Origin: a bacterium
GTDB lineage: Bacteria > Hinthialibacterota > Hinthialibacteria > Hinthialibacterales > Hinthialibacteraceae
Length of the DNA stretch: 17,235 nt
Direction: 5' to 3'
NCBI GenBank assembly: GCA_041946805.1
Contig: JBHGBC010000130.1
Span: 1-17,235 of the forward strand
Positions 123-16,818 of the stretch are shown here, one piece after another. A model generated the notes under the pieces. It did not search any database. It was not told the DNA's origin and saw only the letters and a list, made by a program, of their open reading frames with translations. The position numbers were made by a program, and so were the translations under genes. Positions within the stretch are counted from its first letter, which is position 1. The number at the start of each line of letters is the position of its first letter.

Positions 123-329
123 ATGAAAACCTTGGCCGAACAGATAGGTGATACCGAAACTAGCCGTCAAATTATTGTGCGGATAAAAATCCCCACTCAC
201 CGGGCGTTGCGGATTAGGGTGGCGGAAGAGGATACTTCGATCCAAAAATGGGTGGAGGAATTGATCGAGCGGGAACTGGGAATCGCGGCGGAGAAAGAAG
301 GCTCTATTGCCACGAAAAAAGCCAGATAA
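123..329 (+). CDS. Small ribbon-helix-helix-like DNA-binding protein (68 aa), probable autoregulator
   Basis: Alternating beta-strand QIIVRIK followed by two amphipathic helices ([27 protein letters not shown]), as in Arc/CopG-type RHH proteins. First gene after the promoter; stop is 2 bp before the next ATG. Confidence 0.65.
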
Positions 330-331
330 AA

Positions 332-1069
332 ATGAGTGCCATTCAAAATGCGAGTCCCAAACCCCAATGGTTGATTGAGAATCCCAAGGACGGGACCCTG
401 CTGGTCCTGATCCCGGACGGAGATTTTTTGGCGGGTGATAAGAAATTTCCGGTTAATTTGCCGGCGTATTACCTGGCGGTGCATCCGGTGACCAACACGC
501 AGTACAAGCGGTTTGTGGAGGCGACGGGGCATCATCCTCCAAACCGGCCGGGTTATGTAACGCCGGTATGGAAGGGGAAAGATTTTCCGATAGAGAAGGC
601 GGATCATCCGGTGGTGTGCGTGAGTTGGAAGGATGCCAAGGCCTATTGCCAATGGGCGGGCATGCGGTTGCCGACGGAGTTGGAGTGGGAGAAGGGGGCG
701 CGGGGGGCGGACGGCCGGGAGTATCCGTGGGGGGACGGATGGGATCCGCATAAATGTAGAAATTCAGTGGGGCAACAAGCAAATGGGACTTGTGACATAT
801 GGTCGTATGCGGAGGGGAGCAGTCCCTGGGGATTGTATCAGATGGCGGGGAACGTGTGGGAGTGGTGTGAAGACTGGTATGACAGCCAGGCTTATGCAAG
901 ATATAAACGAGGGGATTTGTCCTTGCCGAAAAGTGGCCAGCATCGTGTGGTTCGCGGTGGCTCGTGGTACCGCTACTTCGTCAATTACTTCGGGTGCGCC
1001 TTCCGCAACAACTACGACCCGTCGGTTCGGGACCTCAACTTCGGTTTCCGTTGTGCCAGGACTTGTTAG
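332..1069 (+). CDS. FGE-sulfatase/CLec-fold protein 1 (245 aa), DGR target
   Basis: Motifs [53 protein letters not shown] and GFRCAR. Start set at ATG 332 rather than 248, which would overlap the RHH gene. Confidence 0.92.
944..1069 (+). repeat. DGR variable region VR1, with conserved 3' IMH-like end at 1043-1069
   Basis: 126-bp gap-free alignment with VR2-VR5; 15 of 16 variable codons end in C; ends GGTTTCCGTTGTGCCAGGACTTGTTAG. Confidence 0.85.
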
Positions 1070-1120
1070 TTTTTATCCTTTTACGCTTTTACCCTTTAGC
1101 GAGCGCAGCGAGCTCGCGCG
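1070..1120 (+). repeat. Post-VR cis element: three 8-bp T-rich units plus GC hairpin
   Basis: TTTTATCC TTTTACGC TTTTACCC (1071-1094), then GCGAGC-GCAGCGA-GCTCGC (1099-1117). Related copies follow VR2, VR4 and VR5. Confidence 0.8.
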
Positions 1121-1149
1121 CAATTTTAGAAAATGAGAGATGGTTTATC

Positions 1150-2232
1150 ATGAAACGTTACAGCCAGTTATGCGAATCGATTAGTTCGTTCGAGAATTTG
1201 TGGGCGGCCGCGTACCGGGCCAGACGCGGGAAGCGCTATCGTCCGGACGTTCTCGCGTTTCATCACGATCTGGAAAATCAGTTATTCACGCTGCGTGAAA
1301 AATTGCTCCATGAAACGTATCAACCCGGTCCGTATCGGACTTTTCCTATCCGGGATCCAAAACCCCGCTTGATCAGCGTGGCCAGTTATCGCGACCGTGT
1401 GGTTCACCACGCGATCTGCCAGATCATCGAACCGCTTTATGACCGGAGTTTCATTGACGATAGTTATGCCAACCGGCTGGGCCGGGGAACCCATAAAGCC
1501 GTGGCTCGGTGCACTTATTTTGCGCGGCGATACCCGTATGTTTTGAAATGCGATATCCAAAAATATTTCCCCTCCATCGATCACGAAATCCTCAAAATCC
1601 TCATCGCTCAAAAAATCAAATGCCCCCGAACCCTGCGATTGGCCGGCAAGATTATTGACAACTCCAATCCCCAAGAAGAAGTTGTGCAATATCTCCCGGG
1701 AGATGATTTGTTCACTTCGTTGGAACGCCGTAAAGGTATCCCGATCGGGAACCTGACCAGTCAATTCTTCGGGAATGTGTATTTGAATGGAATGGATCAC
1801 TATATAAAAGAGGCTTTGCATTGCGGTGCTTCTCTGCGTTTCGCGGACGACTTTCTCGTGTTCAAGGATGAGAAAGGGCGGTTGCACGCCATTCTTCGAT
1901 CCCTGCAAAATTATCTCAATCGCTTGCGCCTGAAATTGCATCCGCACAAATGCCAAGTGTCACCCACAGTCCATGGTGTGGAATTTTTGGGGTGGATCAT
2001 TTATCCCGATCACCGGAGGGTGCGGCGTTCCACCGGGCTTCGATTTCAGCGCCAATTACGCAAGCTTCAGCAGGCTTATGTCAAAGGATGGATTGATTTG
2101 AATTCCGTGAAAGCCTCGATAATGAGTTGGATTGGTCATTTGCAACACGGAGATACCCACGGTTTGCGGCGGAAATTATTAGAGTCAGCGGTTTTTTCGA
2201 GGAGTGCAGAATGTTGCACGACGGGAGAATGA
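1150..2232 (+). CDS. DGR-type reverse transcriptase (360 aa)
   Basis: MKRY start, YRDRVVHHA, LKCDIQKYFPSIDH, GIPIGNLTSQ (DGR-type SQ motif), RFADDF, GVEFLGW and SWIGHLQHGDT. Compact, with no group II intron maturase or endonuclease extension. Confidence 0.92.
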   Translation: MKRYSQLCESISSFENLWAAAYRARRGKRYRPDVLAFHHDLENQLFTLREKLLHETYQPGPYRTFPIRDPKPRLISVASYRDRVVHHAICQIIEPLYDRSFIDDSYANRLGRGTHKAVARCTYFARRYPYVLKCDIQKYFPSIDHEILKILIAQKIKCPRTLRLAGKIIDNSNPQEEVVQYLPGDDLFTSLERRKGIPIGNLTSQFFGNVYLNGMDHYIKEALHCGASLRFADDFLVFKDEKGRLHAILRSLQNYLNRLRLKLHPHKCQVSPTVHGVEFLGWIIYPDHRRVRRSTGLRFQRQLRKLQQAYVKGWIDLNSVKASIMSWIGHLQHGDTHGLRRKLLESAVFSRSAECCTTGE

Positions 2233-3485
2233 TGATGGACAAGATAAGTCTGGAAAAATATGGGAAGCGTTTGAGGAGCCGAATTCCGGTATGGGGCTTA
2301 ATGCGGCGCCGGGGCGCCATCCAAAAACTGGCGGAAGATTCCTCGAGCGAGGCGGTCCCCCTGTTGGTATCGGCATTGGATTCAACCGACCATACCGTGA
2401 GGGAAACGGCGGACCGGGCATTGCATTCACTGGAGGACCCGAAAGCGATTGACGCGCTGTGCGAAGAGGCCATTCGGAATCCTTCGGGCCGGGCGGCCGC
2501 GATTTGCCGGGAAACCAACAAGCGGCCGTCTGATCACGAACGGGCTTGCTTGTTCCTGTTTGTCACCCGGCAACTCGACGCCTATTTTGATGAGGATTTC
2601 GAGTTCCAAAACCTGCGGTTGCAATATGACCGGGAGGATGCGGTGGTCCAAGGGCATCTCATGGACATCGTGCGTTCCGGGGACCGTCGATGTTTGGGAT
2701 TTTTTGGCGCCCGCAAGTCTCTCTCCGAATGCACGGAGAGTGAAATCCAATTGGCCATCGATTCGGCGTTGCGGCATCAGGACTGGCCGCGTTTGTTTCG
2801 CGCGTTTTTGGAACTGCCTGTAAAGTACGGATATCCGTTGTTGGATCCATTCCGTGATTCCGGCTGGGAGCCGTCCGATCCGGAGTTGAAAAGCGTTTAC
2901 AAACATGTGCTGGAAGACAGCCGGGATCAATCATTCCCTGTAGAAAGAAAAATCAAGACCATCAGTCCCGTTTTCGAACGCTGGCTGATCCAAGGAAGGG
3001 AAAACACTTTTAAGGATCTTTCCGAAACGGAACTGCTCAACCGCTTGGAATCTTGCACACCACCGGAAGGGGTGTCGATTGTGGCCGCCCTGGCCGCCAA
3101 ATGCAAACCGGGAAGTGAAACCGCCCAGAAAATCCAACGGAATCCACACTGGTTGATTCGCCTGGCGGGCTACGCAACCGGTTTGTGTTTCGATCTGACC
3201 GTTGATGAAGTAAAAGACAGCAACTATTGGGTGAGGGAACTGGTAACCAGTAGCGCCGTACTCGAGTTGTGGCCAGGAAAAGCCACGCCGACCGATTTGG
3301 ATGCGTTAAAGGCCGCCCCACGGGAAGCCTGGTTGGGTAAATTCGGCGCGGTCCGGAAGGTTCTGCAAACCTTGATTGGATATCGCATCACCACAGGCGT
3401 GTATGAGGAAATGGCATTTGAAGCCGGTGAATTTGCCGGTGAATTCGACACCGCGATGGATTTTAACACGGACGATTCCAAATAA
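2229..3485 (+). CDS. N-terminal HEAT-repeat helical protein (about 418 aa) with acidic tail
   Basis: PBS-lyase/HEAT-like segment AIQKLAE..EAVPLLVSALDSTDHTVRETADRALHSL. ATGA overlap with the RT stop and GGGAG upstream; the start could also be 2232 or 2235. Confidence 0.7.
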   Translation: MMMDKISLEKYGKRLRSRIPVWGLMRRRGAIQKLAEDSSSEAVPLLVSALDSTDHTVRETADRALHSLEDPKAIDALCEEAIRNPSGRAAAICRETNKRPSDHERACLFLFVTRQLDAYFDEDFEFQNLRLQYDREDAVVQGHLMDIVRSGDRRCLGFFGARKSLSECTESEIQLAIDSALRHQDWPRLFRAFLELPVKYGYPLLDPFRDSGWEPSDPELKSVYKHVLEDSRDQSFPVERKIKTISPVFERWLIQGRENTFKDLSETELLNRLESCTPPEGVSIVAALAAKCKPGSETAQKIQRNPHWLIRLAGYATGLCFDLTVDEVKDSNYWVRELVTSSAVLELWPGKATPTDLDALKAAPREAWLGKFGAVRKVLQTLIGYRITTGVYEEMAFEAGEFAGEFDTAMDFNTDDSK

Positions 3486-3507
3486 CGTAGCGAAAAGAGA
3501 ACATGCC

Positions 3508-4044
3508 ATGAGTGTTAAAAGATACTTTGCACGGCTGGTTTCCGCATTGTTGGGGAGAGAGACATTGATAGCCGGCGTTGAGGGGAGCAATGCGTCAGTG
3601 CAGGCGCGAATTGCCCTCTTGGAGATGGACATCAAGGAAAGGGACAAGCGCATCACGGAGATGCAGAAAGAATACGCGAATCTCCAGGTTGCCCAGGAAA
3701 AAGCCACAGCCGGGGCCGGCCGGGAAGAGATCAAAAATTTATGCAAACGCCTGGTGGGAACATTATCCAATCTGGATGTGCTGGTCTCTCTCGAAAAGTC
3801 GGGCCGGGAAGTAGCCGTCAAGGATTTGATCGAACTGATCCTGAGCCTGGAAAAAGAACTCGGCCGGATTGGACTGGAAAAGATCGGAACCGTGGGGATG
3901 GAAACCGGTTTTGATCCAGTTTTTTATCAGCGAATGAGTGGGGGCAGTGTTCGGGCAGGGATCCCGGTGGTTGTGCGCATTCCAGGGTACCGGATGGGCG
4001 AGAAAATATTGCTCAAAGCGATGGTCACCGCCCAGGAGGCCTAG
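3508..4044 (+). CDS. GrpE-like nucleotide exchange factor (178 aa)
   Basis: Long N-terminal coiled coil, then a GrpE-like head GLEKIG..G..FDP..YQ..VVVRIPGYRMGEKILLKAMV; directly upstream of the Hsp70. Confidence 0.75.
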   Translation: MSVKRYFARLVSALLGRETLIAGVEGSNASVQARIALLEMDIKERDKRITEMQKEYANLQVAQEKATAGAGREEIKNLCKRLVGTLSNLDVLVSLEKSGREVAVKDLIELILSLEKELGRIGLEKIGTVGMETGFDPVFYQRMSGGSVRAGIPVVVRIPGYRMGEKILLKAMVTAQEA

Positions 4045-4045
4045 G

Positions 4046-5677
4046 ATGAGCCAGGTATCGGTCGACTTTGGGACAAGCAATACCGTTTTAGCCCGGTTTA
4101 ACGAGACCACGCAACGGGTAGAAACCCTGGATATCCCCGGTATCGCCAGTGAAATGCGCTATCGCTTGACGCAAGATGGACCGGAACAATTCGTTCATGT
4201 TATTCCTTCCCTCATTCATTATTCCGAAACGGAAACCTTGATCGGCAACCAGGTTTTATCGCGTGGCTTGGCCGAACATCCGGACACGTTCCGATGGATG
4301 AAACGCGCGATCGCCCGTCGCATTACCAAATGCAAGAAGACGGCTCAAGGCCATATCGATCCCCTGCAGGCCGGGGAAGATTTTTTGAAGGCGTTGTTGA
4401 ATTATGCCAGCGACCGGATTTCCTTCACCAACGATGATTTTACCTTCACCGCGCCGGTGGAGGCGTTCGAGGATTTTCAAGATTGGCTTTGGAAAGTCAT
4501 CGAAGGATTGGGAATCCGGAGGTTTCGTATGTTGGATGAGCCCACATCGTGCGTGTTTGGCTATCATGGAGCCGCCCGGAAAGACGAACGATTCGTGATG
4601 TTCGATTTCGGCGGAGGCACGTTGGACGTGTCGACGATCCGGATTGAAATGAGTTCAACCGACACGAAAAAGGCCGTTCAGCTAGGCCAGGCCGGCCAGG
4701 ATCTGGGGGGAATGGATATCGATCAATGGCTGGCGGAAGATTTTAGCACTCGGCATAAGTTGGACGACCGGGAAAAGCGGGATTTGGAAGCCATCATTCT
4801 CCGGCAGGCCGAGGCGGTCAAGATTGCATTATCGGACCCGCTGGAGGCAGAAGCCGGATTTCAGATTATTAGCCAGGCTGGATCCGCGCCGAGATTGCTT
4901 CGTACTACGTTTACACGCAGTTGTGCGCAGTGCGAACGCGGTCAGGTGGGCAATCACTCTGCCCCGGGAGAAGCGTGCATGGGCTGTATCTTGCTTCAAA
5001 AGGATTTCGTGAAACAGGTGCGGGATACGATTGACCGGGCGCTGGAGAACGCGGCGGTGAAAGTGGGGATGCGAAAAAATGAGATCACAAAAGTACTGGT
5101 CACCGGGGGAACCAGTTTAGTCCTTTGCGTTCAAGACATCTTGAAGAATTGCTTTGATTGCCACATTGAATATGACCATCCATTCGATACGGTGGTGCGC
5201 GGGGCGTGCCGGGGAATCGTGGAACCGGTTCTTCAGCATGACTACGCCATTGAAAGTTATAACAGCTCCCGGAAAGAGTATGAATTCAAGCCCTTATTCA
5301 AGATCGGCACTGAATTCCCCACGCGAAAAGATGCCGTCAGGTTTTGGGCCAAGGGCAGTTACGATGGCATGACCCGGATCGGATTGAAAATCTATGAAGT
5401 GTCCCGCATGAAGCGGAGGGATCTCGCGGTGGCCATCGTGGGGGAGGATGGCCGATTGCGGGGAGACAGCCGGGTAACCAGCGAGTATGAGTACATTTGT
5501 TTGAATGAAGACAATCCCACGTTTATCCTGGCCGATCCCCCAGTGAATCTGGCGCGGGATCAACAACGTTTCCTCTGTTCGTTCGGAATCGACGGCAATC
5601 GCCGGTTGCTGGTAACCGTGCTCGATACCCTACGCAGAAAACCCTTGCTCAAAGAGCATCCCGTTGTCCGACTGTAA
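4046..5677 (+). CDS. Atypical Hsp70-family ATPase (543 aa), not a housekeeping DnaK
   Basis: VDFGTSNT, LDEPTS, FDFGGGTLDVS, LGGMDID, AEAVKIALS and VLVTGGTS; AGGAGG RBS at 4034-4039. Short divergent C-terminal beta region with no helical lid. Confidence 0.9.
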   Translation: MSQVSVDFGTSNTVLARFNETTQRVETLDIPGIASEMRYRLTQDGPEQFVHVIPSLIHYSETETLIGNQVLSRGLAEHPDTFRWMKRAIARRITKCKKTAQGHIDPLQAGEDFLKALLNYASDRISFTNDDFTFTAPVEAFEDFQDWLWKVIEGLGIRRFRMLDEPTSCVFGYHGAARKDERFVMFDFGGGTLDVSTIRIEMSSTDTKKAVQLGQAGQDLGGMDIDQWLAEDFSTRHKLDDREKRDLEAIILRQAEAVKIALSDPLEAEAGFQIISQAGSAPRLLRTTFTRSCAQCERGQVGNHSAPGEACMGCILLQKDFVKQVRDTIDRALENAAVKVGMRKNEITKVLVTGGTSLVLCVQDILKNCFDCHIEYDHPFDTVVRGACRGIVEPVLQHDYAIESYNSSRKEYEFKPLFKIGTEFPTRKDAVRFWAKGSYDGMTRIGLKIYEVSRMKRRDLAVAIVGEDGRLRGDSRVTSEYEYICLNEDNPTFILADPPVNLARDQQRFLCSFGIDGNRRLLVTVLDTLRRKPLLKEHPVVRL

Positions 5678-5706
5678 CGGGAAGGGGAGAAAGAAGAATA
5701 CTCATC

Positions 5707-7242
5707 ATGAATCTCAAGGAAGAATTACTCGCGTTGTTCGGGGCGAATGTTCCCATGATGAACCTGATCACTTACGAAGAAGACCGGGTGATTCGCTGCA
5801 TCCAGGAATTGCCGGGCAATTTCGGGATTTATACGTGGGATATGGCGGATGGCTTCAAGTGCATCCGGGAAGGAAAGGAACCCTTTCCTAAAAAGGATGT
5901 AACGACGGATACCCTCCTGCCGCATATCGCCGAAAAAGCCCCGACGGGGTACGTTTTTGTTTTCAAGGATTTCCATCATTCCTGGACGCAAAAAAAGGGG
6001 TACATCACCCGCAAATTACGCAACATGGCCCCCGAGTTGCGCAAACGCAACCAATTTCTGGTTTTTCTTACGCCCGCGGCCGAGCTTCCGCTGGAACTCA
6101 AAGACGATGTAGTCGTTTTGCATGTGCCCTTGCCGGACAGCCATGAAATGGAGCAATTGTATGATGATGTGACGCGCAATTTGGATCGAGGAAGATTACC
6201 GCATCGTGACTTGCGGGGAAAACTAGTTTCCTCGGCGCTGGGATTGACCACGAATCAAGCCCGATTGGCCTTTTCGCGGGTTTGGGCGCGGTATCAGAAG
6301 TTTGATGAACGCGGTATTGATTTGGTCACCTGGGCCAAGCGGGAGGTGATCCGCGAGAGTGGCGCGTTGGAATTCTGGCCGGCGGAGGAGGGGGAAACGA
6401 GTGTCGGGGGATTGGATTTGATGAAAGCGTGGCTTAAGAAGCGTGGCATCGCTTTCGATGAGGAAGCGAGAAAAGCAGGGCTGCCCTTTCCCAGCGGAGT
6501 GGCGTTGATCGGCATTCCCGGCACCGGCAAAAGTTTATCGGCCAAGATGCTGTCCGGCTTGTGGAAGATGCCGTTGTTACGGCTGGATATAGGAGCGGTA
6601 TTCGAATCGTTGTTAGGCGAATCCGAAAAACACATGCGCCGGGCCATCATGCTGGCGGAGACGGTCAGTCCTTGTATTTTGTGGATCGATGAGATGGAAA
6701 AAGCCTTTGCGGGATCGGGCACAGGTGCTTTGAACAGTGGAGCCGCCACGCGGGTCTTCGGCGGTTTTTTGACCTGGATGCAGGAACATAAAAGCCCGGT
6801 GTTCGTATTTGCCACGGCCAACGATATCAACGCCTTGCCGCCGGAACTCATGAACCGGTTCGAGCGGACCTTTTTCCTCGATCTGCCCAACGCCCTGGAA
6901 CGGGAAGAGATCTTTATCATCCACTTGAAACGGGCCGGAGAAATCAATCCCAAACACCGTTTCCGGATGAACGAATTGGTCGAACGCAGCCGCAGCCTGG
7001 TAGGCCGGGAGATTGAACGCGCCGTGCGGGAAGCCCAATTCACCGCTTTCGCCGATGGCAACCGCGAGATCACGCAAACGGATTTGGAGGATTCTCTTCG
7101 GGAGATTGTCCCCATTAGTCAATCTCACGCGGAAATCATTGAAGGTTTGCGAAAGTGGAAGACCGAGGGCCGCGCATTCCCCGCTTCCAGCGAGGAAAAG
7201 CGATCGGATCTGACGCGCGGACGACAAATCGAGATTGAATAA
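5707..7242 (+). CDS. Ycf46-like AAA+ ATPase 1 (511 aa)
   Basis: N-terminal TYEEDR and degenerate first domain (FVFKDFH); Walker A GIPGTGKS; Walker B LWIDEMEK; FATAND. Confidence 0.88.
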   Translation: MNLKEELLALFGANVPMMNLITYEEDRVIRCIQELPGNFGIYTWDMADGFKCIREGKEPFPKKDVTTDTLLPHIAEKAPTGYVFVFKDFHHSWTQKKGYITRKLRNMAPELRKRNQFLVFLTPAAELPLELKDDVVVLHVPLPDSHEMEQLYDDVTRNLDRGRLPHRDLRGKLVSSALGLTTNQARLAFSRVWARYQKFDERGIDLVTWAKREVIRESGALEFWPAEEGETSVGGLDLMKAWLKKRGIAFDEEARKAGLPFPSGVALIGIPGTGKSLSAKMLSGLWKMPLLRLDIGAVFESLLGESEKHMRRAIMLAETVSPCILWIDEMEKAFAGSGTGALNSGAATRVFGGFLTWMQEHKSPVFVFATANDINALPPELMNRFERTFFLDLPNALEREEIFIIHLKRAGEINPKHRFRMNELVERSRSLVGREIERAVREAQFTAFADGNREITQTDLEDSLREIVPISQSHAEIIEGLRKWKTEGRAFPASSEEKRSDLTRGRQIEIE

Positions 7243-7261
7243 GCGAAAAGGAGCGAGACCC

Positions 7262-7654
7262 ATGTCTCATTTTGTGCGCATTAAAACTCAAATTCGCGAG
7301 CGGGAGATTCTGGTTCAATCCTTGCGGGATTTGTATTACCGGTTTCAGGAAGGACAGAACCTGGTCATCCGCGGATATCAGCAAAATCGTGAACAGGCTG
7401 AAATCCTAGTAAATACCGGTTCACAATATGACATTGGCTTTCGCCGGACGGCCCAGGAATACGAAATCGTGGCCGATTGGTGGGGTGTGCAAGGCAATAC
7501 AGCCATTCGGCAAGAGGAATTTGTCCAACAAGTGAACCGTCAGTATTCCTACAATCTGATTCACAACCAAGCGCGAGAACAAAACCTGATAGTCGAGGAA
7601 GAAAAGACGTTGGAAAACGGGGATGTTGTTTTGATCTTGTCGGAGCGCGGATAG
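7262..7654 (+). CDS. DUF1257/Ycf35-like protein (130 aa)
   Basis: Characteristic MSHF.RIKTQI start, [13 protein letters not shown] and [22 protein letters not shown] upstream; usual neighbour of Ycf46-like ATPases. Confidence 0.82.
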
Positions 7655-7658
7655 ATCA

Positions 7659-8372
7659 ATGTCTTATGACATTCTTATCGAGAATGAGAAAGACGGCACG
7701 CTGCTGGTTTTGATTTCGGAGGGGGATTTTTTGGCGGGTGCTGAAAAGTTCCCGGTCCATTTACCGGCGTATTACTTGGCGCTGCATCCGGTGACCAATG
7801 CGCAGTACAAGCGGTTTGTGGAGGATACCGGCCATCGGCCGCCGTATAAGGCGAGTTCGAGAAACCCATTGTGGAGGGGGAAAGATTTTTCGCAAGAGAA
7901 GGCGGAACATCCGGTGGTGTGCGTGAGTTGGGGGGACGCGCAGGACTATTGCCGATGGGCGAGATTGCGGTTACCGACAGAGTTGGAGTGGGAGAAGGGG
8001 GCGCGGGGAATAGAAGGCCAGGAGTATCCCTGGGGGGAGGGGATGGATTGGGGGAAATGCCGGAATGCTAAAAACAAGGGGAATGAGACGACTTGTAATG
8101 TATGGTCGTATACGTCCGGGTGCAGTTCGTGGGGGCAGTATCAGATGGCGGGGAACGTGTGGGAGTGGTGTGAGGATTGGTTTGATGGACAAGCCTTTGA
8201 AAAGTATAAGCAAGGGGATTTGTCCTTGCCGAAGAGGGGAAAGTATCGTGTGGTTCGCGGGGGCTCATGGAACTTCTACAAAGACAATTATTTTCATTGC
8301 ACGTACCGTATCGACTACGTCCCGTCGTCTCGAAACAACATATACGGTTTCCGTTGTGCCAGGACTTATTAG
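7659..8372 (+). CDS. FGE-sulfatase/CLec-fold protein 2 (237 aa), DGR target
   Basis: Close paralog of CLec1 with the same motifs; ends GFRCARTY. Confidence 0.92.
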
Positions 8373-8402
8373 TTTTTACATATTTATCCTTTAGCGAGCG
8401 AA
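8247..8402 (+). repeat. VR2 (8247-8372) plus truncated post-VR element
   Basis: 12 of 16 variable codons end in C; one mismatch in the IMH-like end; only two degenerate 8-bp units and only the left hairpin arm (TTTAGCGAGCGAA). Confidence 0.8.
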
Positions 8403-8718
8403 TCCAAAGTCCTAGTAGAGTTTATCGTTATCATAAATACCTTCGATCATTGCCGAGAGATGATGTAGAGGATGAGGAAAGCATTCATATAATTTATGCT
8501 TTGCAATTCACGAACAGCAGGGAATTGCAAATAAGGTTCCTTTCCGGCTTAGATCAAATAGAAAAATCACGAGACCGAAATCCCAAAGCGGCTGAAAGGT
8601 TTATAATGCTTGTGCGAATACCTCCCAGTTACTCAGTTGTAAAAGGTAGAGAGATAATGGCTCATATTTTGAGAAATGAGGGTATTGTGTTGTTCTTGTC
8701 GGAGCGGGGATAACATCG

Positions 8719-9480
8719 ATGCCATACGATCTGATCATCGAGAATCCTAAGGACGGAACCCTGCTGGTCCTGATTCCGGCGGGAGAGTTCTTGGCGGGTG
8801 CTGATAAGTTCACGGTCCATTTGCCGGCGTATTACCTGGCGCTGCATCCAGTGACCAATGCGCAGTATAAGAAGTTTGTGGAGGAGACGGGGTATAGCAC
8901 GTCTGATACGATGGTTTCTTCAGTTTGGCAAAATAAATATTTCAATAATAAAAAATTGGATCATCCCGTAGTGGAGATTAGTTGGTATGATGCTCAGGCT
9001 TATTGTATTTGGGCGGGTTTACGACTGCCGACGGAGTTAGAATGGGAGAAAGGAGCGAGAGGAAAGGATGACCGGAAATATCCCTGGGGACATGAATGGG
9101 ATCCTAGAAATTGTAGAAATTCTGTAGGTCAAAGAGTCTATGGAACATGTGGAGTATGGTTGTATTCAGAGAATTGTTGCCAATGGGGTTTGTACCAAAT
9201 AGCGGGTAATGTGTGTGAGTGGTGTGAAGATTGGTATGACACCCATGCATATGAGAAATATAAGCAAGGAATTTTGTCAATGCCAAAAAATGATAATGTG
9301 CTTCATAATGTGCTTAATAAAAAATCGTTGCTCCGTGTTGTTCGCGGGGGCTCGTGGAGAAACATCAGTAGCATCGGCTTTCAATGCGCTTACCGAGAAG
9401 GCGTCGATCCTTCGTCTCGAAAATACAACATCGGTTTTCGATGCGCCAGTCCTAATAAGGCTCACCCGTATTGCAGGTAA
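8719..9480 (+). CDS. FGE-sulfatase/CLec-fold protein 3 (253 aa), divergent, probably no longer diversified
   Basis: Same motifs but AT-richer codons, AGNVCEW, an insertion before RVVRGGSW and an extended C-terminus ([15 protein letters not shown]). Confidence 0.9.
9334..9459 (+). repeat. Degenerate VR3
   Basis: Aligns gap-free with the other VRs; 11 of 16 variable codons end in C; IMH-like end eroded (GGTTTTCGATGCGCCAGT); no downstream element. Confidence 0.7.
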
Positions 9481-9545
9481 AGCAATCATGCACATAATTT
9501 TCAAAATCAATCCTCTATAAAATCGTAAGGCTGGGGAGAACCACC

Positions 9546-9743
9546 GTGAAAAAAATCAAAATAACCCTCCACAAAGACGGCACGCAAAAAATCGAAGTGC
9601 TGGGCGGAACTGGGGAAACATGCATGGAATTCACCCGGGAACTCGAACAACGGCTGGGGAAACCCATTGGGGAACGCATCCTCAAACCCGAATATCACGA
9701 AACCATAACTGAAACCGAGAAGGATTTTGAGGTGGAATCGTGA
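9546..9743 (+). CDS. DUF2997-like small protein (65 aa)
   Basis: IKITLHKDGTQKIEVLGGTGETCMEFTRELEQRLG pattern; GGGGAG RBS and GTG start; overlaps the next AAA gene. Confidence 0.8.
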   Translation: MKKIKITLHKDGTQKIEVLGGTGETCMEFTRELEQRLGKPIGERILKPEYHETITETEKDFEVES

Positions 9744-11386
9744 TGGTTACCCCTTCGACGGTTCCCTCCCCGGCCGGACAATCCAAATTCCAGCAGGACC
9801 TGCAGATTTACATCCGCGCGGGGTACCCGATTTTGTATGTGGTTACGGCGGAAGAGGACCGGGCCATCGACTTGATAACCCATTCCTCGCAGGAAGGGGA
9901 GTTGGCCCGCCGGAAACCACTGATCTGGTCGATCTCCCGAGGATTGTGCACGATCGATCACAAAGCTGTCGATCGAAAAATCCTCGATCCTAAAATCATT
10001 TTGCCGTTTTTGCTGGAATTCCAGGAGCCGGGTTTGTTTATCCTGGAGGATTTCCACTTTTTCATGGATGAGCGCTCTCCCACCGCCCCGCTGATCATCC
10101 GGCAGCTGCGCGACCTGGTGGCGCCGTTCAAAGCCTCCCGGAAAACCGTGATTATCCTTTCCTCCATCCTGAAAATACCTCCGGAATTGGAGAAGGATAT
10201 CACCGTGCTCGATCTGGATCTCCCCACGGAAGCGGAACTCCTGGAGGTGCTGAATGAAACCGTCGACCAGGTCAAGGACAATCCCAAAGTAGAGATCAAC
10301 TTGGAAAGCGGCGGGAGCGAAATCATCGTGAAAGCGCTGAACGGATTGACACGGACGGAATCCGAAAACGCCTTGGCCAAGATCATCGTGACCAACAGCC
10401 GCATCGATCCCGAAGACGTGGAGTTGCTGCTCGCGGAAAAGGAACAGATCATCCGCAAGTCGGGAATGTTGGAGTTTTATTCCAGCCCCGAACGCTTTGG
10501 TTCCATCGGAGGATTGGATTTACTCAAACGCTGGTTGCGGCAACGAGGAAAAGCGTTTTCCGAATCCGCCCGGCTGTTTGGGCTGCCCAATCCTCGCGGA
10601 TTGCTGCTGGTGGGCGTTCCCGGATGCGGTAAAAGCCTCACCGCCAAAGCGGTAGCCGCCGAGTGGAAGATGCCGCTGCTCAAATTTGATTTAGGAAAAG
10701 TCTTCGCCGGACTGGTCGGTGAATCAGAAGAGAACATGCGCCGCGCGATTAAGATGGCGGAAGCCGTTTCCCCCTGCGTGCTGTGGATCGATGAAATTGA
10801 AAAAGGACTTTCGGGAGTCCGCGGCCACGGTGACAGTGGAGTCACTACGCGTGTTTTTGGGACGCTTCTGACCTGGATGGAAGAAAAAACCAAAGCGGTT
10901 TTTGTGGTCACCACCGCCAATGACATCGAAGGCCTGCCGCCCGAACTGCTGCGCAAAGGCCGTTTCGATGAAATTTTCTTTATCGATCTTCCCTCTCCCT
11001 TGGAGCGCGCCAACATCCTGGCCATTCATTTGACCAAGAATCACCGCGACTACCGTGATTTTGACCTTTCACCGCATGTAGCTGCCAGCGAAGGATTCTC
11101 CGGGGCGGAGTTAGAGCAAGTTGTTATCTCAGCGTTGTATGAAGCCTATGCGGAAGGAGAAAAAAGCCGGTTGGAGAATCGTCATCTCGAAAAAGCCATC
11201 CGGACTTCGGTTCCACTCTCCAAATCCATGGCTTCCAAAATCACCAAACTACGTTACGAAGCCCGTGACCAATGGCGGATGGCTTCCAGCGGGGAAGACG
11301 GTGGAAAGGACCAAGTAATCGGAGAGGTTTCCATGGGTGAAGTTCCACCCGTTCACACCAAACCCAAACGAGTGTTCGAACTGTGA
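9740..11386 (+). CDS. Ycf46-like AAA+ ATPase 2 (548 aa)
   Basis: [26 protein letters not shown], Walker A GVPGCGKS, Walker B LWIDEIEK and an intact [16 protein letters not shown]. Confidence 0.9.
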
Positions 11387-11393
11387 ACCGATC

Positions 11394-12212
11394 ATGAAAT
11401 TCATCAGTAAATCCAAATTGTCAGTGATTGGATCCAAAACAGATTATGAATCCACGACTCAGGTTCTGACGGTATGGGATTCAGTACTGAACCGTTTCCC
11501 CAATTTTCCCCCCATCATCGAGAACAAGAAAGACGGGACATTGCTTGTTTTGATTCGGGAAGGATTATTTTTGGCTGGTGTAAGTAGATTTCTGGTTCGA
11601 TTACCGGCGTATTACTTGGCACTGCATCCAGTGACCAACGCGCAGTACAAGAAGTTTGTGAAGGCAACGGGGCATCGTCCGCCAAACCAGCTGGATTATG
11701 GGACACCGGTCTGGAGCGGGAGAGATTTTCCGAACGAGAAGGCGGATCATCCGGTGGTGTGCGTGAGTTGGGAGGATGCTCAGGCATATTGTCAATGGGC
11801 GGGATTGCGGTTGCCGACGGAGTTGGAATGGGAGAAGGGGGCACAGGGGAAGGATGGCCGGGAGTATCCCTGGGGGCTGGTGATGGATTGGGAGAAATGC
11901 CGGAATGATAGAAACAGAGGAGATGAGACGACCTGTAGCGTATGGTCGTATGCGGAAGGCAGCAGTCCGTGGGGATTGTACCAGATGGCGGGGAACGTGG
12001 AGGAGTGGTGTGAGGACTGGTATGACAATCAGGCCTACGATAAATACAAGGAAGGGAATATGTCCTTGCCGAAGAGTGGCCAATCTCGTGTGGTTCGCGG
12101 GGGCTCGTGGAACGACCGCTGCGCCTACTTCATCCAGTGCGCTGGCCGTCACTACCGCGTCCCGTCGGAGCGGAGCGACGGCCGCGGTTTCCGTTGTGCC
12201 AGGACTTGTTAG
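11394..12212 (+). CDS. FGE-sulfatase/CLec-fold protein 4 (272 aa), DGR target
   Basis: Paralog with a leader of about 40 aa and AGNVEEW; ends GFRCARTC. Start set at the first ATG after the AAA2 stop. Confidence 0.9.
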
Positions 12213-12262
12213 ATTTTATTCTTTTACACACTTACCTTTTAGCGAGTGCAGCGAGCTCGCGC
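12087..12262 (+). repeat. VR4 (12087-12212) plus post-VR element
   Basis: 16 of 16 variable codons end in C; IMH-like 27-mer identical to VR1 and VR5; degenerate 8-bp units, then GCGAGT-GCAGCGA-GCTCGC (12242-12260). Confidence 0.85.
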
Positions 12263-12287
12263 GAAAATCTTGTGAAGGATAGTCATC

Positions 12288-14639
12288 ATGACCAGCGGCG
12301 GCCCTTACAAAATCGGCCAGGAATTCGGATCTTATTGCCTGGAAAGATACCTGGGTTCCGGCGCGTTCAAGAGTGTGTATTGCGCGACAAACCGGGGGAT
12401 GGATATACTAGTAACGGCTGTCGCCCTTGGTTTTCCCCATCAACAGGACGCGTTGGGGCTGGAAGACCTTGAAAAAGAATTTGCTGTCAACAGCCGGTTA
12501 ATCCACCCCAACATCGTGCGGACCTACGGATTGGAAAAACACGAAGGGATTGCCTTTCTAGTCATGGAATATGTGGAAGGTCAAACCTTGCGTCAAATTA
12601 TGAAGGATCGCGGCCCTTTATCGCCGCCGGAAGCGATTCGATATGCCGGGCTGGTCTCGGAAGCCTTGGCCTACGCCCATGCCTCCCGTGTTTTGCACCG
12701 GGACGTAAAACCTGACAACATCTACATCACCCAGGAGAATATTCCCAAACTTTTCGATTTCGGCGTCGGCCGCCTGTTATCCCGTACCAGTCAAAAGGCC
12801 AGTACCCGTATCGGGACGGTGGAGTACATGGCCCCGGAAGCCCTGCAGGGCGCCACGGGAATCCAGTCGGACATCTGGTCGCTGGGTATCACGCTCTATG
12901 AAATGCTGACCGGAATCCTGCCGTTCGCGGGAGAAGTCGGGGAAGTGATCCACAAGATCATGACGGCCAAATTCGACGAAGCGCCGCTGCGCCAGAAACA
13001 TGTCGATAACCGGATCATCCGGGTCCTTCGGAAAGCATTGAGTAAGGACCCCAATACCCGTTATCCCAACGCCGGGGAGCTGAGCCGGGACCTGGAAACC
13101 GTGGCCCGCCGTACCCGCATGGCCGATGATGACGAGAGCCGCTTAGAGATTCTCATCCGCGCCAGTATCCCACTCATTGGCGTTTGCTCGTTTGAAGAAG
13201 AACGCGTGCTGACCGCCATCCGGAACATCGCGCAACGGCTGACCGAAGACCGAGGCCGGCCGCGGCGGATGTATATCTGGAGCACATCCCGCGGCTTGCG
13301 CGACGAGGAAAATAAGCTGATCGGCAAGGATTCCGCGGGGGATCCCACCCTGGCTTTGTTGCATCTGATCGATGATCCCGACGATGCCATTTTTGTTTTT
13401 CTCGACATTCACGATCACTTCACGCCGGTGACGACGCGCCTGATCCGGGACGCCGCCCGGGCGGTCCGTATGACTCACAAGTCGGTTCTCTTTTTGTCGC
13501 CATTCTATAAAGTGCCAGATGAACTCCAAAAGGAGGTCACATTATCCCTGTATCAGTTACCTGACCGGACCTGCCTCGAACCGTTGCTCGATCAATTGAT
13601 CGATGAGTTCAAGAACGCCAACTTGCCAGTTGAATTGTCGGATGAGGATCGAATGGCGGTCATCCGGGCGTCAATGGGATTGACTCTGAACGAAGCGGAA
13701 CGGGCGATCCGCGCCGCCGGACTGAGATTGCAGGGATTGAAATCGGGCATCGACCGGCTCGTAGCCGAAGAAAAAACACAAGTGATCCGCAAAACGGGCA
13801 TTTTGGAATACTATCATCAATCCGATTCGTTCAAGGACGTTGGAGGATTGAACGAATTGGTGAAATGGTTCCAATCCCGGCTGCCGGTTTTCGCCGGGAC
13901 AACACGGTATGCCGGCCTTCCGCAGCCCAAGGGCGTTCTGTTAGTTGGCGTCCCTGGATGCGGCAAAAGCCTGACTGCACGCGCCTTGGCGGGAGCCTGG
14001 CAAGTCCCGCTGTTGCGTTTGGATGTCGGACGCATTTTCGGTTCGTTGGTCGGTGCTTCCGAGGCCAATCTGCGCCGCGCCATCCAAACCGCGGAATCAG
14101 TCAGCCCGTGTATTTTGTGGATCGATGAAGTGGAGAAAGGTTTTTCGGGTGTGCGCGGGCAAGGAGACAGTGGTGTCTCCGCCCGTGTGTTCGGCACATT
14201 TTTGTCCTGGCTGCAGGATAAAAAAAGTCCGGTATTTGTGGTGGCCACCGCCAATGATCTCTCCGGCATCCCCCCGGAGTTTTTACGGCAGGGACGTTTT
14301 GACGATATTTTTTTCGTCGGCTTGCCCGGTAAAAAACAACGGGAGGATATATTCAAAATTCACTTGAACAAACGACACCGCGATCCGGATACGTTTAACC
14401 TCCCCGGCTTGGTCGAGGCGAGCGGGCAATTTTCCGGCGCGGAAATCGAACAGGCAGTCATCGCGGGTCTTTTCCATGCCTTCGACCATGACCGGGAACT
14501 GGAAAGCGAAGATATCCATCAGGCATTGAAAGAAACAGTTCCCCTCGCTCAATCCCGTCGAGAAGACATCCGCCTCTTGACCGCGTGGGCCAGTCAAAAC
14601 GCGAAATATGCCAATCTGGAAGGATCCACGCCATCATGA
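12288..14639 (+). CDS. Hanks-type Ser/Thr kinase (WNK-like lysine placement) fused to Ycf46-like AAA+ ATPase 3 (783 aa)
   Basis: Kinase: [50 protein letters not shown]+: [34 protein letters not shown]. Confidence 0.92.
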
Positions 14640-15421
14640 CCGATCACATAGATCGTAATACAACAATCCCGATTCTGACTCCAGGTGATTTCGCGCTTGA
14701 CAACATTTTGGGTTTTTCTCCAATCATTGAAAACGAAAAAGACGGAACGTTGCTGGTCCTGATCCCGGCGGGGGAGTTTTTAGCAGGGAAAGAAAAGTTC
14801 CCGGTCCATTTGCCGGCGTATTACCTGGCGCTGCATCCGGTGACCAACGCGCAGTACAAGCGGTTTGTGGATGAGACCGGCCATCGGCCGCCGGATCAGA
14901 CGAATGGGGGAACGCCGGTGTGGAAGGGAAAAGATTTTCCCCAACAGAAGGCGGATCATCCGGTGGGGTGCGTGAGTTGGGTGTATGCCCAGGCCTATTG
15001 CCAATGGGCGGGAATGCGATGGCCGACAGAGTTGGAGTGGGAGAAGGGGGCGCGGGGGACGGCCGGCCGGGAATATCCCTGGGGGGAGGGGATGGATTGG
15101 GAGAAATGCTGGAATAAAGAAAATAAGGGGAATGAGACGACCTGTGATGTATGGTCGTATGCGGCCGGATGCAGTCCGTGGGGGCTGTATCAGATGGCGG
15201 GGAATGTGTGGGAGTGGTGTGAGGACAGGTATGACGACCAGGCATATGAAAGATATAAACGAGGGGATATATCCTTGCCGAAAAGCGGAACGTCTCGTGT
15301 GGTTCGCGGGGGCTCGTGGTACGACAATAACGTCAACTACTTCCAATGCGCCGACCGCAGCCCCTACGACCCGTGGTCGCGGCACCTCTCCTGCGGTTTC
15401 CGTTGTGCCAGGACTTGTTAG
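14636..15421 (+). CDS. FGE-sulfatase/CLec-fold protein 5 (261 aa), DGR target
   Basis: ATGA overlap with the kinase-AAA stop; same motifs; ends GFRCARTC. Confidence 0.9.
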
Positions 15422-15484
15422 TTTTTATCCTTTTACGCTTTTACCCTTAAAACGAGCGAAGCGAGCTTGCTGCAAATTTTGCAG
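15296..15484 (+). repeat. VR5 (15296-15421) plus post-VR element
   Basis: 15 of 16 variable codons end in C; 15394-15448 is identical to 1042-1096 (55 bp); then CGAGCGAAGCGAGCTTGC and the inverted repeat CTGCAAA-T-TTTGCAG (15470-15484). Confidence 0.85.
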
Positions 15485-15497
15485 AAATGGTGTTTGC

Positions 15498-16070
15498 ATG
15501 AAAGTCCAAATGCACGGCATAGAGTTAGCCAGCCGATCAAATGGACCTGGATTACGTGCGGCAATCTGGTTTCAAGGTTGTACGCTGCATTGCTTCGGTT
15601 GTTTCAATCCTGAAACTCACGATCCCACGAGTGGATTTGTGATGGAAACCCAGGATCTTGCCCATATGATCCATTCTTCAAACCTTCCCCTCGAGGGAAT
15701 CTCGATATCCGGCGGGGAGCCGTTCCAGCAATCCGAAGCGCTATACGATTTTCTCACACAAGTGGACCGTTCAAAATTGAGCGTTTTGGTTTTTACCGGG
15801 TATACCTTGGATGAAGTGAAACGGATTCCATTGGGATTACAAATCCTGACAATGGCCGATGCACTAATCGCGGGACGCTATCAACCAAACCAACCGTCCA
15901 ATTTCGCTCTATTGGGTTCATCGAATCAAAAGATCCATCTGCTCACCAATCGATATCGCATTTCCGATTTCGCATCCATTCCGCACAGCGAAGTAATCCT
16001 TCACAAAGATGGAACAATCACGATAACCGGTGTTCACCCCTTGAAAGCGCATGGGGCTACCCATGAATGA
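15498..16070 (+). CDS. NrdG/activase-like radical SAM protein (190 aa)
   Basis: NGPGLRAAIWFQGCTLHCFGCFNPETH (CxxxCxxC), ISISGGEPFQQ, VFTGYT and GSSNQK. Confidence 0.88.
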   Translation: MKVQMHGIELASRSNGPGLRAAIWFQGCTLHCFGCFNPETHDPTSGFVMETQDLAHMIHSSNLPLEGISISGGEPFQQSEALYDFLTQVDRSKLSVLVFTGYTLDEVKRIPLGLQILTMADALIAGRYQPNQPSNFALLGSSNQKIHLLTNRYRISDFASIPHSEVILHKDGTITITGVHPLKAHGATHE

Positions 16071-16818
16071 GAATTACTCACTATATAACATCGTATGTGC
16101 AGGCCTGACCGATCGGGGTCGAATCCGCGCGGAAAATCAAGATGCCTTTTTCATGCTGCCTGAGAAAGGCTTTTTCTTAGTCGTGGATGGCCTCGGCGGT
16201 CATCAAGCGGGGCGCCACGCCGCGGAAATGATAACCAACATCTTACCAGAACAGATTTTACAATTATCTTTAACGGTATCAAATGGCACAAAAGCCATCG
16301 CAGCGGTGCTGCAAGAAGAAATCCGGCGTTTGAATCATATTCTCTGGCAAGCAAGTGAATCCTACGAAAATATTCGTGGCATGGGAGCCACGCTGGTCAT
16401 GGCATATTCGCTCCAAGAAAACGTATTCATTGCACATGTCGGAGACAGCCGGGCTTATTTATTACGCGCGAACCAATTGAATCCCTTAACCAAGGATCAT
16501 TCCATCATTCGACATCTCGTGGATAGTGGGGTCATCACTCCCGACAAGGCAGACGATCATCCGATGAAAAATCAAATCACGCAATGTATCGGAATGGAAA
16601 AGGATATCGCACCTGATATTACATCATTTATTACTCAAGCAGGAGATCGGATTTTGCTCTGCACAGACGGACTGTCAGAAATGCTGAAGGATACCGAAAT
16701 AGCGGAGATTTTGAATAGTCAGAAAGATTCCCAACTGGCTTGTCAAATACTTATTGAAATGGGTAACGACCGAGGCGGTGAAGATAACATGACCGTTGTC
16801 ATTGTGGATTGGATATAG
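16063..16818 (+). CDS. PP2C/PPM-family Ser/Thr phosphatase (Stp1/PrpC-like, about 251 aa)
   Basis: TDRGRIRAENQD, VVDGLGG, MGATL, AHVGDSRAY, LTKDHS, LLCTDGL and GGEDNMT; alternative start at 16051. Confidence 0.93.
   Translation: MNENYSLYNIVCAGLTDRGRIRAENQDAFFMLPEKGFFLVVDGLGGHQAGRHAAEMITNILPEQILQLSLTVSNGTKAIAAVLQEEIRRLNHILWQASESYENIRGMGATLVMAYSLQENVFIAHVGDSRAYLLRANQLNPLTKDHSIIRHLVDSGVITPDKADDHPMKNQITQCIGMEKDIAPDITSFITQAGDRILLCTDGLSEMLKDTEIAEILNSQKDSQLACQILIEMGNDRGGEDNMTVVIVDWI

Follow-up and report, generated by a model that had tools for sequence, protein, structure and literature searches.

Can a bacterial Hanks-type kinase give up the beta-3 (VAIK) lysine and still be a working enzyme, with the charge supplied from its glycine-rich loop? 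The question is raised by a kinase-AAA protein of 783 amino acids encoded on contig JBHGBC010000130.1 (assembly GCA_041946805.1), in a conserved island of reverse transcriptase, lectin-fold and further AAA+ genes. The window analysed here is this whole contig (17,235 bases), a fragment of metagenome type and one of 315 in a 6.7-Mb assembly. An initial annotation of the stretch had placed a lysine at the third-glycine position of the loop and a glycine at the beta-3 lysine position, and had compared this arrangement with that of the eukaryotic WNK kinases. Both residues are confirmed in the DNA and its reading frame, and the relocation is, as far as sequences can tell, a fixed trait of an entire family of kinase-AAA proteins. 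We further argue that these proteins are probably active kinases that depend on the relocated lysine, Lys28.

The interval 12351-12431, from Leu22 to Gly48, holds both changes (coordinates of all features are collected in Table 1), and the translation contains no lysine between residues 29 and 62. In an AF2 model of the kinase domain, computed from a 114-row family alignment (predicted local distance difference test, pLDDT, 85.6; predicted template modelling score, pTM, 0.83), DSSP assigns beta-1 to residues 16-24, beta-2 to 28-35 and beta-3 to 44-50. The register at beta-3 needs some care. An ungapped phmmer alignment to Staphylococcus aureus Stk1 (4eqm) sets V45 under the VAIK lysine, because the beta2-beta3 loop is three residues longer here. 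We also aligned 14 family members by hmmalign to a profile built from 200 canonical neighbour domains. In 12 of the 14 rows the lysine column of the profile (V-A-L-K) is occupied by Gly, Ala or Cys; the window protein and one other row were shifted by three residues. V45 was rejected as the beta-3 lysine equivalent, as the family motif, the invariant Ala46 (114/114) and the canonical-profile alignment all lead to G48. We accept G48 as the position corresponding to the beta-3 lysine, and K28 as the first beta-2 residue, as the alignments and the model predict. Right after the emptied position follows a near-invariant F-P-H-x-Q-D motif (F49-P50-H51-Q52-Q53-D54, 12435-12449), which the canonical neighbours lack.

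To see how far the arrangement extends, residues 1-290 were searched against 5.8 billion clustered proteins. Besides the protein itself, the best 120 matches comprise 119 relatives that share 47-78% identity with it, most of them (with few exceptions) about 777 amino acids long and with both Pkinase and AAA; the named sources are Planctomycetota, Hydrogenedentes, Deltaproteobacteria, Polyangiaceae and Phycisphaerae metagenome-assembled genomes. Position 28 is lysine in every row that has the region (117/117; three rows lack the N-terminus), and position 48 is Gly in 108 rows, Ala in 7, Cys in 3 and a gap in 2, and is never lysine. The WNK-like relocation proposed in the initial annotation is, on these counts, found throughout the family. 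The 114-row alignment comprises P0001 and 113 of the 119 relatives, leaving out the N-terminally truncated P0111, P0117 and P0121 as well as P0047, P0103 and P0104. Within it G23, G25, F27, K28, A46, E64, H137, D139, K141, N144, F158, G159, T177, P183 and E184 are invariant, and a stray lysine occurs within positions 40-56 in seven rows, never at a conserved place. The other catalytic motifs and the alphaC glutamate, previously described as intact, are all present (HRDVKPDN, DFG, APE and E64) and are retained in at least 111 of the 114 rows. Phe158 of the DFG motif is found in 120/120 of the best rows, and the residue after the DFG glycine is Val, Ile or Leu.

Two more distant genomic members, from Verrucomicrobia (L020) and Gallionellaceae (L028), have 43-44% identity, keep the glycine-loop lysine and carry Cys at beta-3. 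The Gallionellaceae protein (L028:111-2459) also has HRDIRPSN, with Arg in place of the catalytic-loop Lys, and so deviates from the canonical core at a further point. Another database entry, P0285, is a 488-residue gene call that joins a family-type kinase fragment to an RVT_1 domain, and may be either a mis-call across neighbouring kinase and reverse transcriptase genes or a true fusion.

Is the lysine at the third-glycine position tied to the loss of the beta-3 lysine, as the initial annotation would lead one to expect? An all-against-all search was listed to its best 150 proteins (representatives of 50% clusters), of which 148 were analysed, two family members being omitted as present under earlier ids. 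These 148 gave 399 matched kinase stretches, 286 of them with a complete glycine loop and beta2-beta3 segment. Four of the 286 domains have the third-glycine lysine; all four belong to the family and none has a beta-3 lysine. Another 273 have the beta-3 lysine and no glycine-loop lysine, and the remaining nine lack both lysines and carry Arg or Gln at beta-3; 273/282 domains of tandem-kinase proteins are accordingly canonical. The top representative matches, P0122-P0130, are very large (up to 7,165 amino acids) and string together 4-10 kinase domains, several of which have a degenerate glycine loop, or Arg or Gln at the position of the beta-3 lysine.

A length-restricted sample was run to offset a bias towards such tandem proteins, with the 300-residue kinase part as the query and proteins of 165-525 amino acids as targets. 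The 120 matches listed comprise 8 known family fragments, 18 new family fragments and 94 non-family proteins. The N-terminus is present in 14 of the 18 new fragments, with lysine in the loop in 14/14 and at beta-3 in 0/14, and the 94 nearest non-family proteins are canonical without exception (94/94). A clear gap in identity separates the two groups (at least 53% within the family, at most 41% outside it). In the kinases compared, the predicted co-variation holds: glycine-loop lysine is perfectly coupled, at the level of aligned residues, to the loss of the beta-3 lysine.

The family also separates from its neighbours in phylogenetic trees. The trees hold 47 canonical neighbours, picked by taking alternate non-family proteins whose domain exceeds 230 amino acids, and 28 family rows, among them the distant L020, L028, P0222, P0119 and P0120. 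In these quick maximum-likelihood searches, unrooted and run without bootstraps, the family rows split from the canonical rows on one branch with a Shimodaira-Hasegawa-like approximate likelihood ratio test (SH-aLRT) support of 100, and the split was unchanged when residues 1-57, which carry the trait, were removed. No WNK appears among the 60 PDB sequence matches or the Foldseek rows listed for the kinase domain, and a phmmer search of the N-lobe alone against the PDB gave three weak matches with no WNK among them. Since the family forms one split in the tree, the swap apparently arose once, at the base of the kinase-AAA family and within the bacterial Hanks kinases. It is apparently convergent with eukaryotic WNK, because the closest relatives in sequence and fold are the bacterial Stk1, StkP, PknB, PknA and PknE, with no WNK listed. 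The convergence that had been thought probable is borne out to this extent.

WNK is the obvious standard of comparison. There the positive charge has left K72 and is found instead at glycine-loop position 55 (PKA G55), the relocated lysine is required for catalysis, and Wnk is described as the only functional eukaryotic protein kinase family without K72 (Kannan 2007, PMC1821047). A more recent account places the WNK lysine on beta-2 and gives Cys as the beta-3 residue (O'Boyle et al. 2025, PMC12599244). The resemblance to, for example, WNK1 (K233 in the glycine loop/beta-2) is close. Both begin beta-2 with a lysine that takes the place of the third glycine, and both have a small residue instead of the VAIK lysine, namely Cys in WNK and Gly, Ala or Cys in the kinase-AAA family. 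The remaining catalytic core, HRD and the alphaC glutamate included, is preserved in both. The differences are just as plain. The two do not share common descent, the kinase-AAA family being nested among canonical bacterial kinases; the family has DFG where WNK has its chloride-binding DLG; and the window's putative kinase is fused to an AAA+ ATPase in a lectin-fold island rather than placed in a setting of ion homeostasis. An analogous shift (R55/M72) may occur in the CAK-chloro subfamily (Kannan 2007, PMC1821047). However, CAK-chloro proteins are small-molecule kinases of the choline/aminoglycoside type with Arg55 and Met72 and with the alphaC Glu changed to Phe, whereas the window family is Hanks-type with Lys28 and Glu64. 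The literature searches made for this analysis turned up no account of bacterial Hanks kinases whose catalytic lysine lies in the glycine loop, nor of the present kinase-AAA family.

We favour an active enzyme because the whole catalytic apparatus and the compensating lysine are kept, because the catalytic loop is of the arginine-aspartate (RD) type with S172/T173 in the activation loop, and because the gene string also encodes a PP2C phosphatase. In such an enzyme K28 would reach down across the small residue at position 48 to touch the alpha and beta phosphates of ATP and would pair with the invariant alphaC Glu64. Phosphotransfer would then be carried out by D139, K141, N144 and D157, as in any RD kinase. 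The kinase would be switched on by phosphorylation of S172/T173 and switched off by the Stp1-type PP2C encoded three genes downstream. The phosphatase gene (16051-16818) matches the NCBIfam model Stp1/IreP NF033484 with 242.5 bits against a cut-off of 230. It starts 1.4 kb downstream of the kinase gene and is the sole PP2C match in the 6.7-Mb assembly, in which the kinase-AAA protein is one of just two kinase matches. Given a PP2C in the gene string, phospho-signalling is likely to be real.

Several observations weigh against this reading. By the usual sequence definition, the missing VAIK lysine alone would have the family called a pseudokinase. The association with a phosphatase is also narrow. 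We compared the window proteins with 78 loci (L003-L080) fetched by AAA-derived patterns, which comprise 73 standalone-AAA loci and five kinase-AAA loci: L003, L004 (Acidobacteriia, syntenic), L005, L020 (Verrucomicrobia) and L028 (Gallionellaceae). No PP2C was found within the flanks of these five kinase-AAA loci, and the only PP2C homolog among the compared loci is in L014, a locus outside the family, so the phosphatase link rests on the window genome alone. The sample of 286 domains is skewed to tandem multi-kinase proteins, whose summed scores filled the top 150 and hid single-domain neighbours. Finally, no template repeat of a diversity-generating retroelement (DGR) was found on the window contig or in the rest of the assembly, where matches allowing two mismatches stayed at control level.

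The alternative that survives best is a true pseudokinase, which would bind nucleotide through K28, or none at all, and serve as a conformational switch or scaffold for the attached AAA+ motor without transferring phosphate. The defining VAIK lysine is missing from every member, the ATPase fusion offers a plausible non-catalytic role, PP2C was not found flanking the other family loci, and most conflict-system kinase domains are reported to have disrupted catalytic residues and to be probably non-enzymatic (Kaur et al. 2020, PMC7159879). The same sequence rule flags the bacterial pseudokinase families ActPs1-3, GLW, CP1, DYD and DLHK, which likewise lack the VAIK lysine. However, the sections of O'Boyle et al. 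2025 covered here (PMC12599244) describe none of them with a glycine-loop lysine or an AAA fusion, and the window family keeps every other catalytic motif. A scaffold has no need of D139, K141, N144, the DFG aspartate, the alphaC glutamate, the RD arginine, the GT and APE elements or a compensating lysine, yet all are held in nearly every row of an alignment that spans 48-78% identity. The Stp1-type phosphatase in the same gene string also speaks for catalysis, and WNK shows that the same arrangement can be active (Kannan 2007, PMC1821047). We consider a pseudokinase rather unlikely.

A more ambitious proposal, which we regard as a long shot, is that K28, the emptied beta-3 position and the G-F-P-H-x-Q-D stretch together form a new pocket. 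Kinase activity might then be tuned by an anion or small ligand, or depend on which nucleotide the AAA+ ring holds, and the protein would turn ligand capture by DGR-diversified lectin-fold proteins into phosphorylation. If this were true, bacteria would have their own version of WNK-style sensing, independently built and wired into adaptive-like recognition. In a wider sense, glycine-loop-lysine kinases may be a recurrent bacterial design that sequence-based pseudokinase catalogues misfile.

Another alternative has the kinase active and regulated directly as in WNK: autophosphorylation would be blocked by chloride or another small anion in the vacated beta-3 space, and the protein would sense ions or osmotic conditions. 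The lysine placement is identical to that of WNK, a placement that has been tied to the chloride site (PMC5346417), and Gly48 would leave a still larger cavity, beside the near-invariant F-P-H-x-Q-D motif. In WNK1, however, the DLG leucines Leu369 and Leu371 make the chloride pocket (PMC5346417), and the DFG phenylalanine of the present family would fill the region that these leucines form. The island contains no ion-transport genes, and its context suggests instead the sensing of macromolecular ligands by DGR-diversified lectin-fold proteins. The ion sensitivity that the initial annotation had thought possible finds no support in these data, and we think it very improbable. That the two changes stem from faulty sequencing or assembly, or from chance decay of a single gene, is next to impossible; against sequencing error the annotation had already argued. 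No observation was found in favour of this reading: the 783-codon reading frame is intact, and the same pair of changes recurs in all rows with the region, in many phyla and independently assembled genomes.

If an active, lysine-relocated kinase is the correct reading, then relocation is a reachable and stable alternative kinase design, not a eukaryotic oddity. A bacterial Hanks family would have fixed the same glycine-loop position, a small beta-3 residue and the retained alphaC glutamate independently of WNK, offering a simple system for asking what lysine relocation buys. Rules that equate a missing VAIK lysine with a pseudokinase would misclassify such families. Moreover, a kinase hard-wired to an AAA+ motor within a hypermutating lectin-fold island would offer a specific candidate for the step by which DGR-diversified intracellular sensors pass on their signal.

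The domain architecture was established as follows. Pfam Pkinase (PF00069) matches residues 18-259 (E 4.2e-49; 167.7 bits, cut-off 31.7; covering 3-252 of the 263 profile positions), and Pfam AAA matches residues 550-678 (E 1.2e-29; 103.9 bits, cut-off 21.2), in a frame uninterrupted through all of its codons. The best PDB sequence match of the kinase is Stk1 (4eqm, E 2.6e-45). Stk1, StkP, PknB and PknE are the top PDB sequence matches, and Stk1, PknB and PknA the top Foldseek matches of the model; identity to the best Stk1/PknB matches is 32-33%, and the NCBIfam Stk1-family score is 218 bits, under its cut-off of 450. In the AAA+ module K560, D613, E614, N656, R667 and R670 are invariant in 98 sequences, and the full-length model has a pLDDT of 83.9 and a pTM of 0.63. 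The name Ycf46/SpoVK comes from the source annotations of database relatives. The gene is predicted to encode a cytoplasmic, two-module signalling protein in which a Ser/Thr kinase of the PknB/Stk1 type precedes a Ycf46-like, classic-clade AAA+ ATPase. The PknB/Stk1 PASTA kinases, which work with Stp1/IreP phosphatases, match it best in structure and sequence; like them it is an RD kinase whose activation loop contains a Thr, and a Stp1-family PP2C is encoded nearby. It differs from them in having no transmembrane segment, no PASTA and no beta-3 lysine, and in having an AAA+ ATPase as its C-terminal partner.

Table 1. Features of the kinase-AAA gene and of the surrounding island. Positions refer to the 17,235-base window; VR, variable repeat.
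Feature	Position	Strand	Evidence and remarks
Kinase-AAA open reading frame (ORF), 783 aa	12288-14639	+	ORF list; Pfam Pkinase and AAA
Kinase domain, residues 1-281	12288-13130	+	AF2 model, Foldseek, PDB sequence match
Gly-rich loop G23-S-G25-A-F-K28-S-V-Y31	12354-12380	+	Read from DNA and translation; G23, G25, F27, K28 and Y31 invariant (114/114)
Lys28, codon AAG	12369-12371	+	Third-glycine position of GxGxxG; first beta-2 residue in model
Beta-3 strand and family motif, V45-D54	12420-12449	+	A46 114/114, F49 108/114, P50 113/114, H51 112/114, Q53 109/114, D54 106/114
Gly48, codon GGT	12429-12431	+	At beta-3 (VAIK) Lys position
AlphaC glutamate Glu64, codon GAA	12477-12479	+	E in 114/114; 9 residues ahead of HPNIV, same register as canonical consensus
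Catalytic loop HRDVKPDN, H137-N144	12696-12719	+	H 114, R 113, D 114, K141 114, N144 114 (of 114)
DFG, D157-G159	12756-12764	+	D 113/114, F 114/114, G 114/114
APE, A182-E184	12831-12839	+	After activation-loop S172/T173 and T177; A 111, P 114, E 114, T173 109, T177 114 (of 114)
Ycf46-like part, residues 283-783 (alpha/beta N-domain and AAA+ module)	13134-14636	+	Pfam, conservation, model
Walker A K560	13965-13967	+	
Walker B D613-E614	14124-14129	+	
FGE/lectin-fold paralog	248-1069	+	Paralog comparison; VR-like end ~944; directly upstream of reverse transcriptase gene
Reverse transcriptase	964-2232	+	RVT_1 E 5e-23; IGNLTSQ motif; true start probably Met ~1150
HEAT-repeat protein	2127-3485	+	
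GrpE-like protein	3376-4044	+	
Hsp70-like protein	3938-5677	+	
Ycf46-like AAA+ paralog	5707-7242	+	64% ortholog in L005
FGE/lectin-fold paralog	7659-8372	+	VR-like end ~8247
FGE/lectin-fold paralog	8719-9480	+	VR-like end ~9334
Standalone Ycf46-like AAA+ paralog	9740-11386	+	Orthologs 72% L004, 68% L005, 54% L028
FGE/lectin-fold paralog	11337-12212	+	Directly upstream of kinase gene; start may be ATG 11394; VR-like end ~12087-12200
FGE-sulfatase/C-type-lectin-fold protein	14636-15421	+	Hypervariable VR-like C-terminal end ~15296-15400
NrdG-like radical-SAM activase homolog	15498-16070	+	Fer4_12 E 8e-29; NrdG 97.7 bits, under cut-off 126.1
Stp1/IreP-type PP2C Ser/Thr phosphatase	16051-16818	+	NF033484

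The island genes (248-16818) all lie on the + strand. The kinase-AAA stop codon overlaps the ATG of the following lectin-fold gene in ATGA (14636-14639), and the radical-SAM and PP2C genes overlap by 20 nt (16051-16070). Both overlaps point to translational coupling in one operon. The five FGE paralogs have common flanks and differ mainly at NNC codons within their last ~35 codons, and none of these VR-like copies acts as a template repeat; the contig may end just short of one.

The clearest view of the retroelement comes from the syntenic Acidobacteriia locus L004, where the order is AAA, FGE, kinase-AAA, FGE, a fragment resembling a template repeat, FGE, reverse transcriptase, an unknown gene, FGE and radical SAM. 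Its AAC-rich template repeat (6762-6870) differs from four variable repeats (~2959, 6163, 8357 and 11500) at adenines, as judged by eye. This pattern of template and variable repeats is a DGR hallmark, with the kinase-AAA gene lying among the target genes. The reverse transcriptase of L004 is an ortholog of that in the window, and the two have IGNLTSQ in common, which we take to be a signature of DGR reverse transcriptases; the best NCBIfam match of the window enzyme is a group II reverse transcriptase, under its cut-off. By analogy with L004, we infer DGR activity at the window locus. FGE genes occur in 4/78 of the compared loci, all four among the five kinase-AAA loci and none among the standalone-AAA loci (0/73).

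The FGE-type lectin-fold proteins, presumably cytoplasmic and with hypervariable tips, may act as variable intracellular ligand sensors, whose signals the AAA+ and kinase modules could relay or threshold, in the spirit of systems described previously (PMC7159879; PMC10907252). The appropriate comparison set is the DGR lectin-fold 'antigen sensor' conflict systems (Kaur 2020, PMC7159879; Dore 2024, PMC10907252), together with the CLec-AAA fusions of candidate phyla radiation bacteria cited there. The window resembles these in having several cytoplasmic targets with an FGE/C-type-lectin fold and apparently adenine-directed hypervariable ends, beside reverse transcriptase, NTPase and kinase modules. 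Its NTPases, however, are three Ycf46-like classic AAA+ paralogs and not MoxR, STAND or GTPases. Its lectin-fold proteins are separate small genes, and it adds Hsp70/GrpE, HEAT and an NrdG-like radical-SAM protein. Neither the window's gene combination nor its kinase is mentioned in the sections of Kaur 2020 (PMC7159879) and Dore 2024 (PMC10907252) covered here. PADLOC returned generic matches only (the PD-T4-6 and mad6 kinase models, IetA for the AAA, and DRT-type reverse transcriptase models), and no named defence system was assigned to the island on this basis.

Orthologs of the two standalone AAA+ paralogs, Hsp70, GrpE and HEAT are spread over L004, L005 and L028, the HEAT protein being found in L004 and L005, and GrpE and Hsp70 in L005. 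Each of the three Ycf46-like AAA+ modules (5707-7242, 9740-11386 and 13134-14636) is followed by one or two lectin-fold genes, and orthologs of all three are present in L005 and partly in L004 and L028. The presence of three paralogs suggests a hetero-oligomeric or tiered AAA+ machine. An NrdG-like homolog is found in 34/78 of the Ycf46-like AAA loci, and this Fer4_12 gene accompanies Ycf46-like AAA+ genes across many unrelated phyla, often directly adjacent to them (as in L006 and L019).

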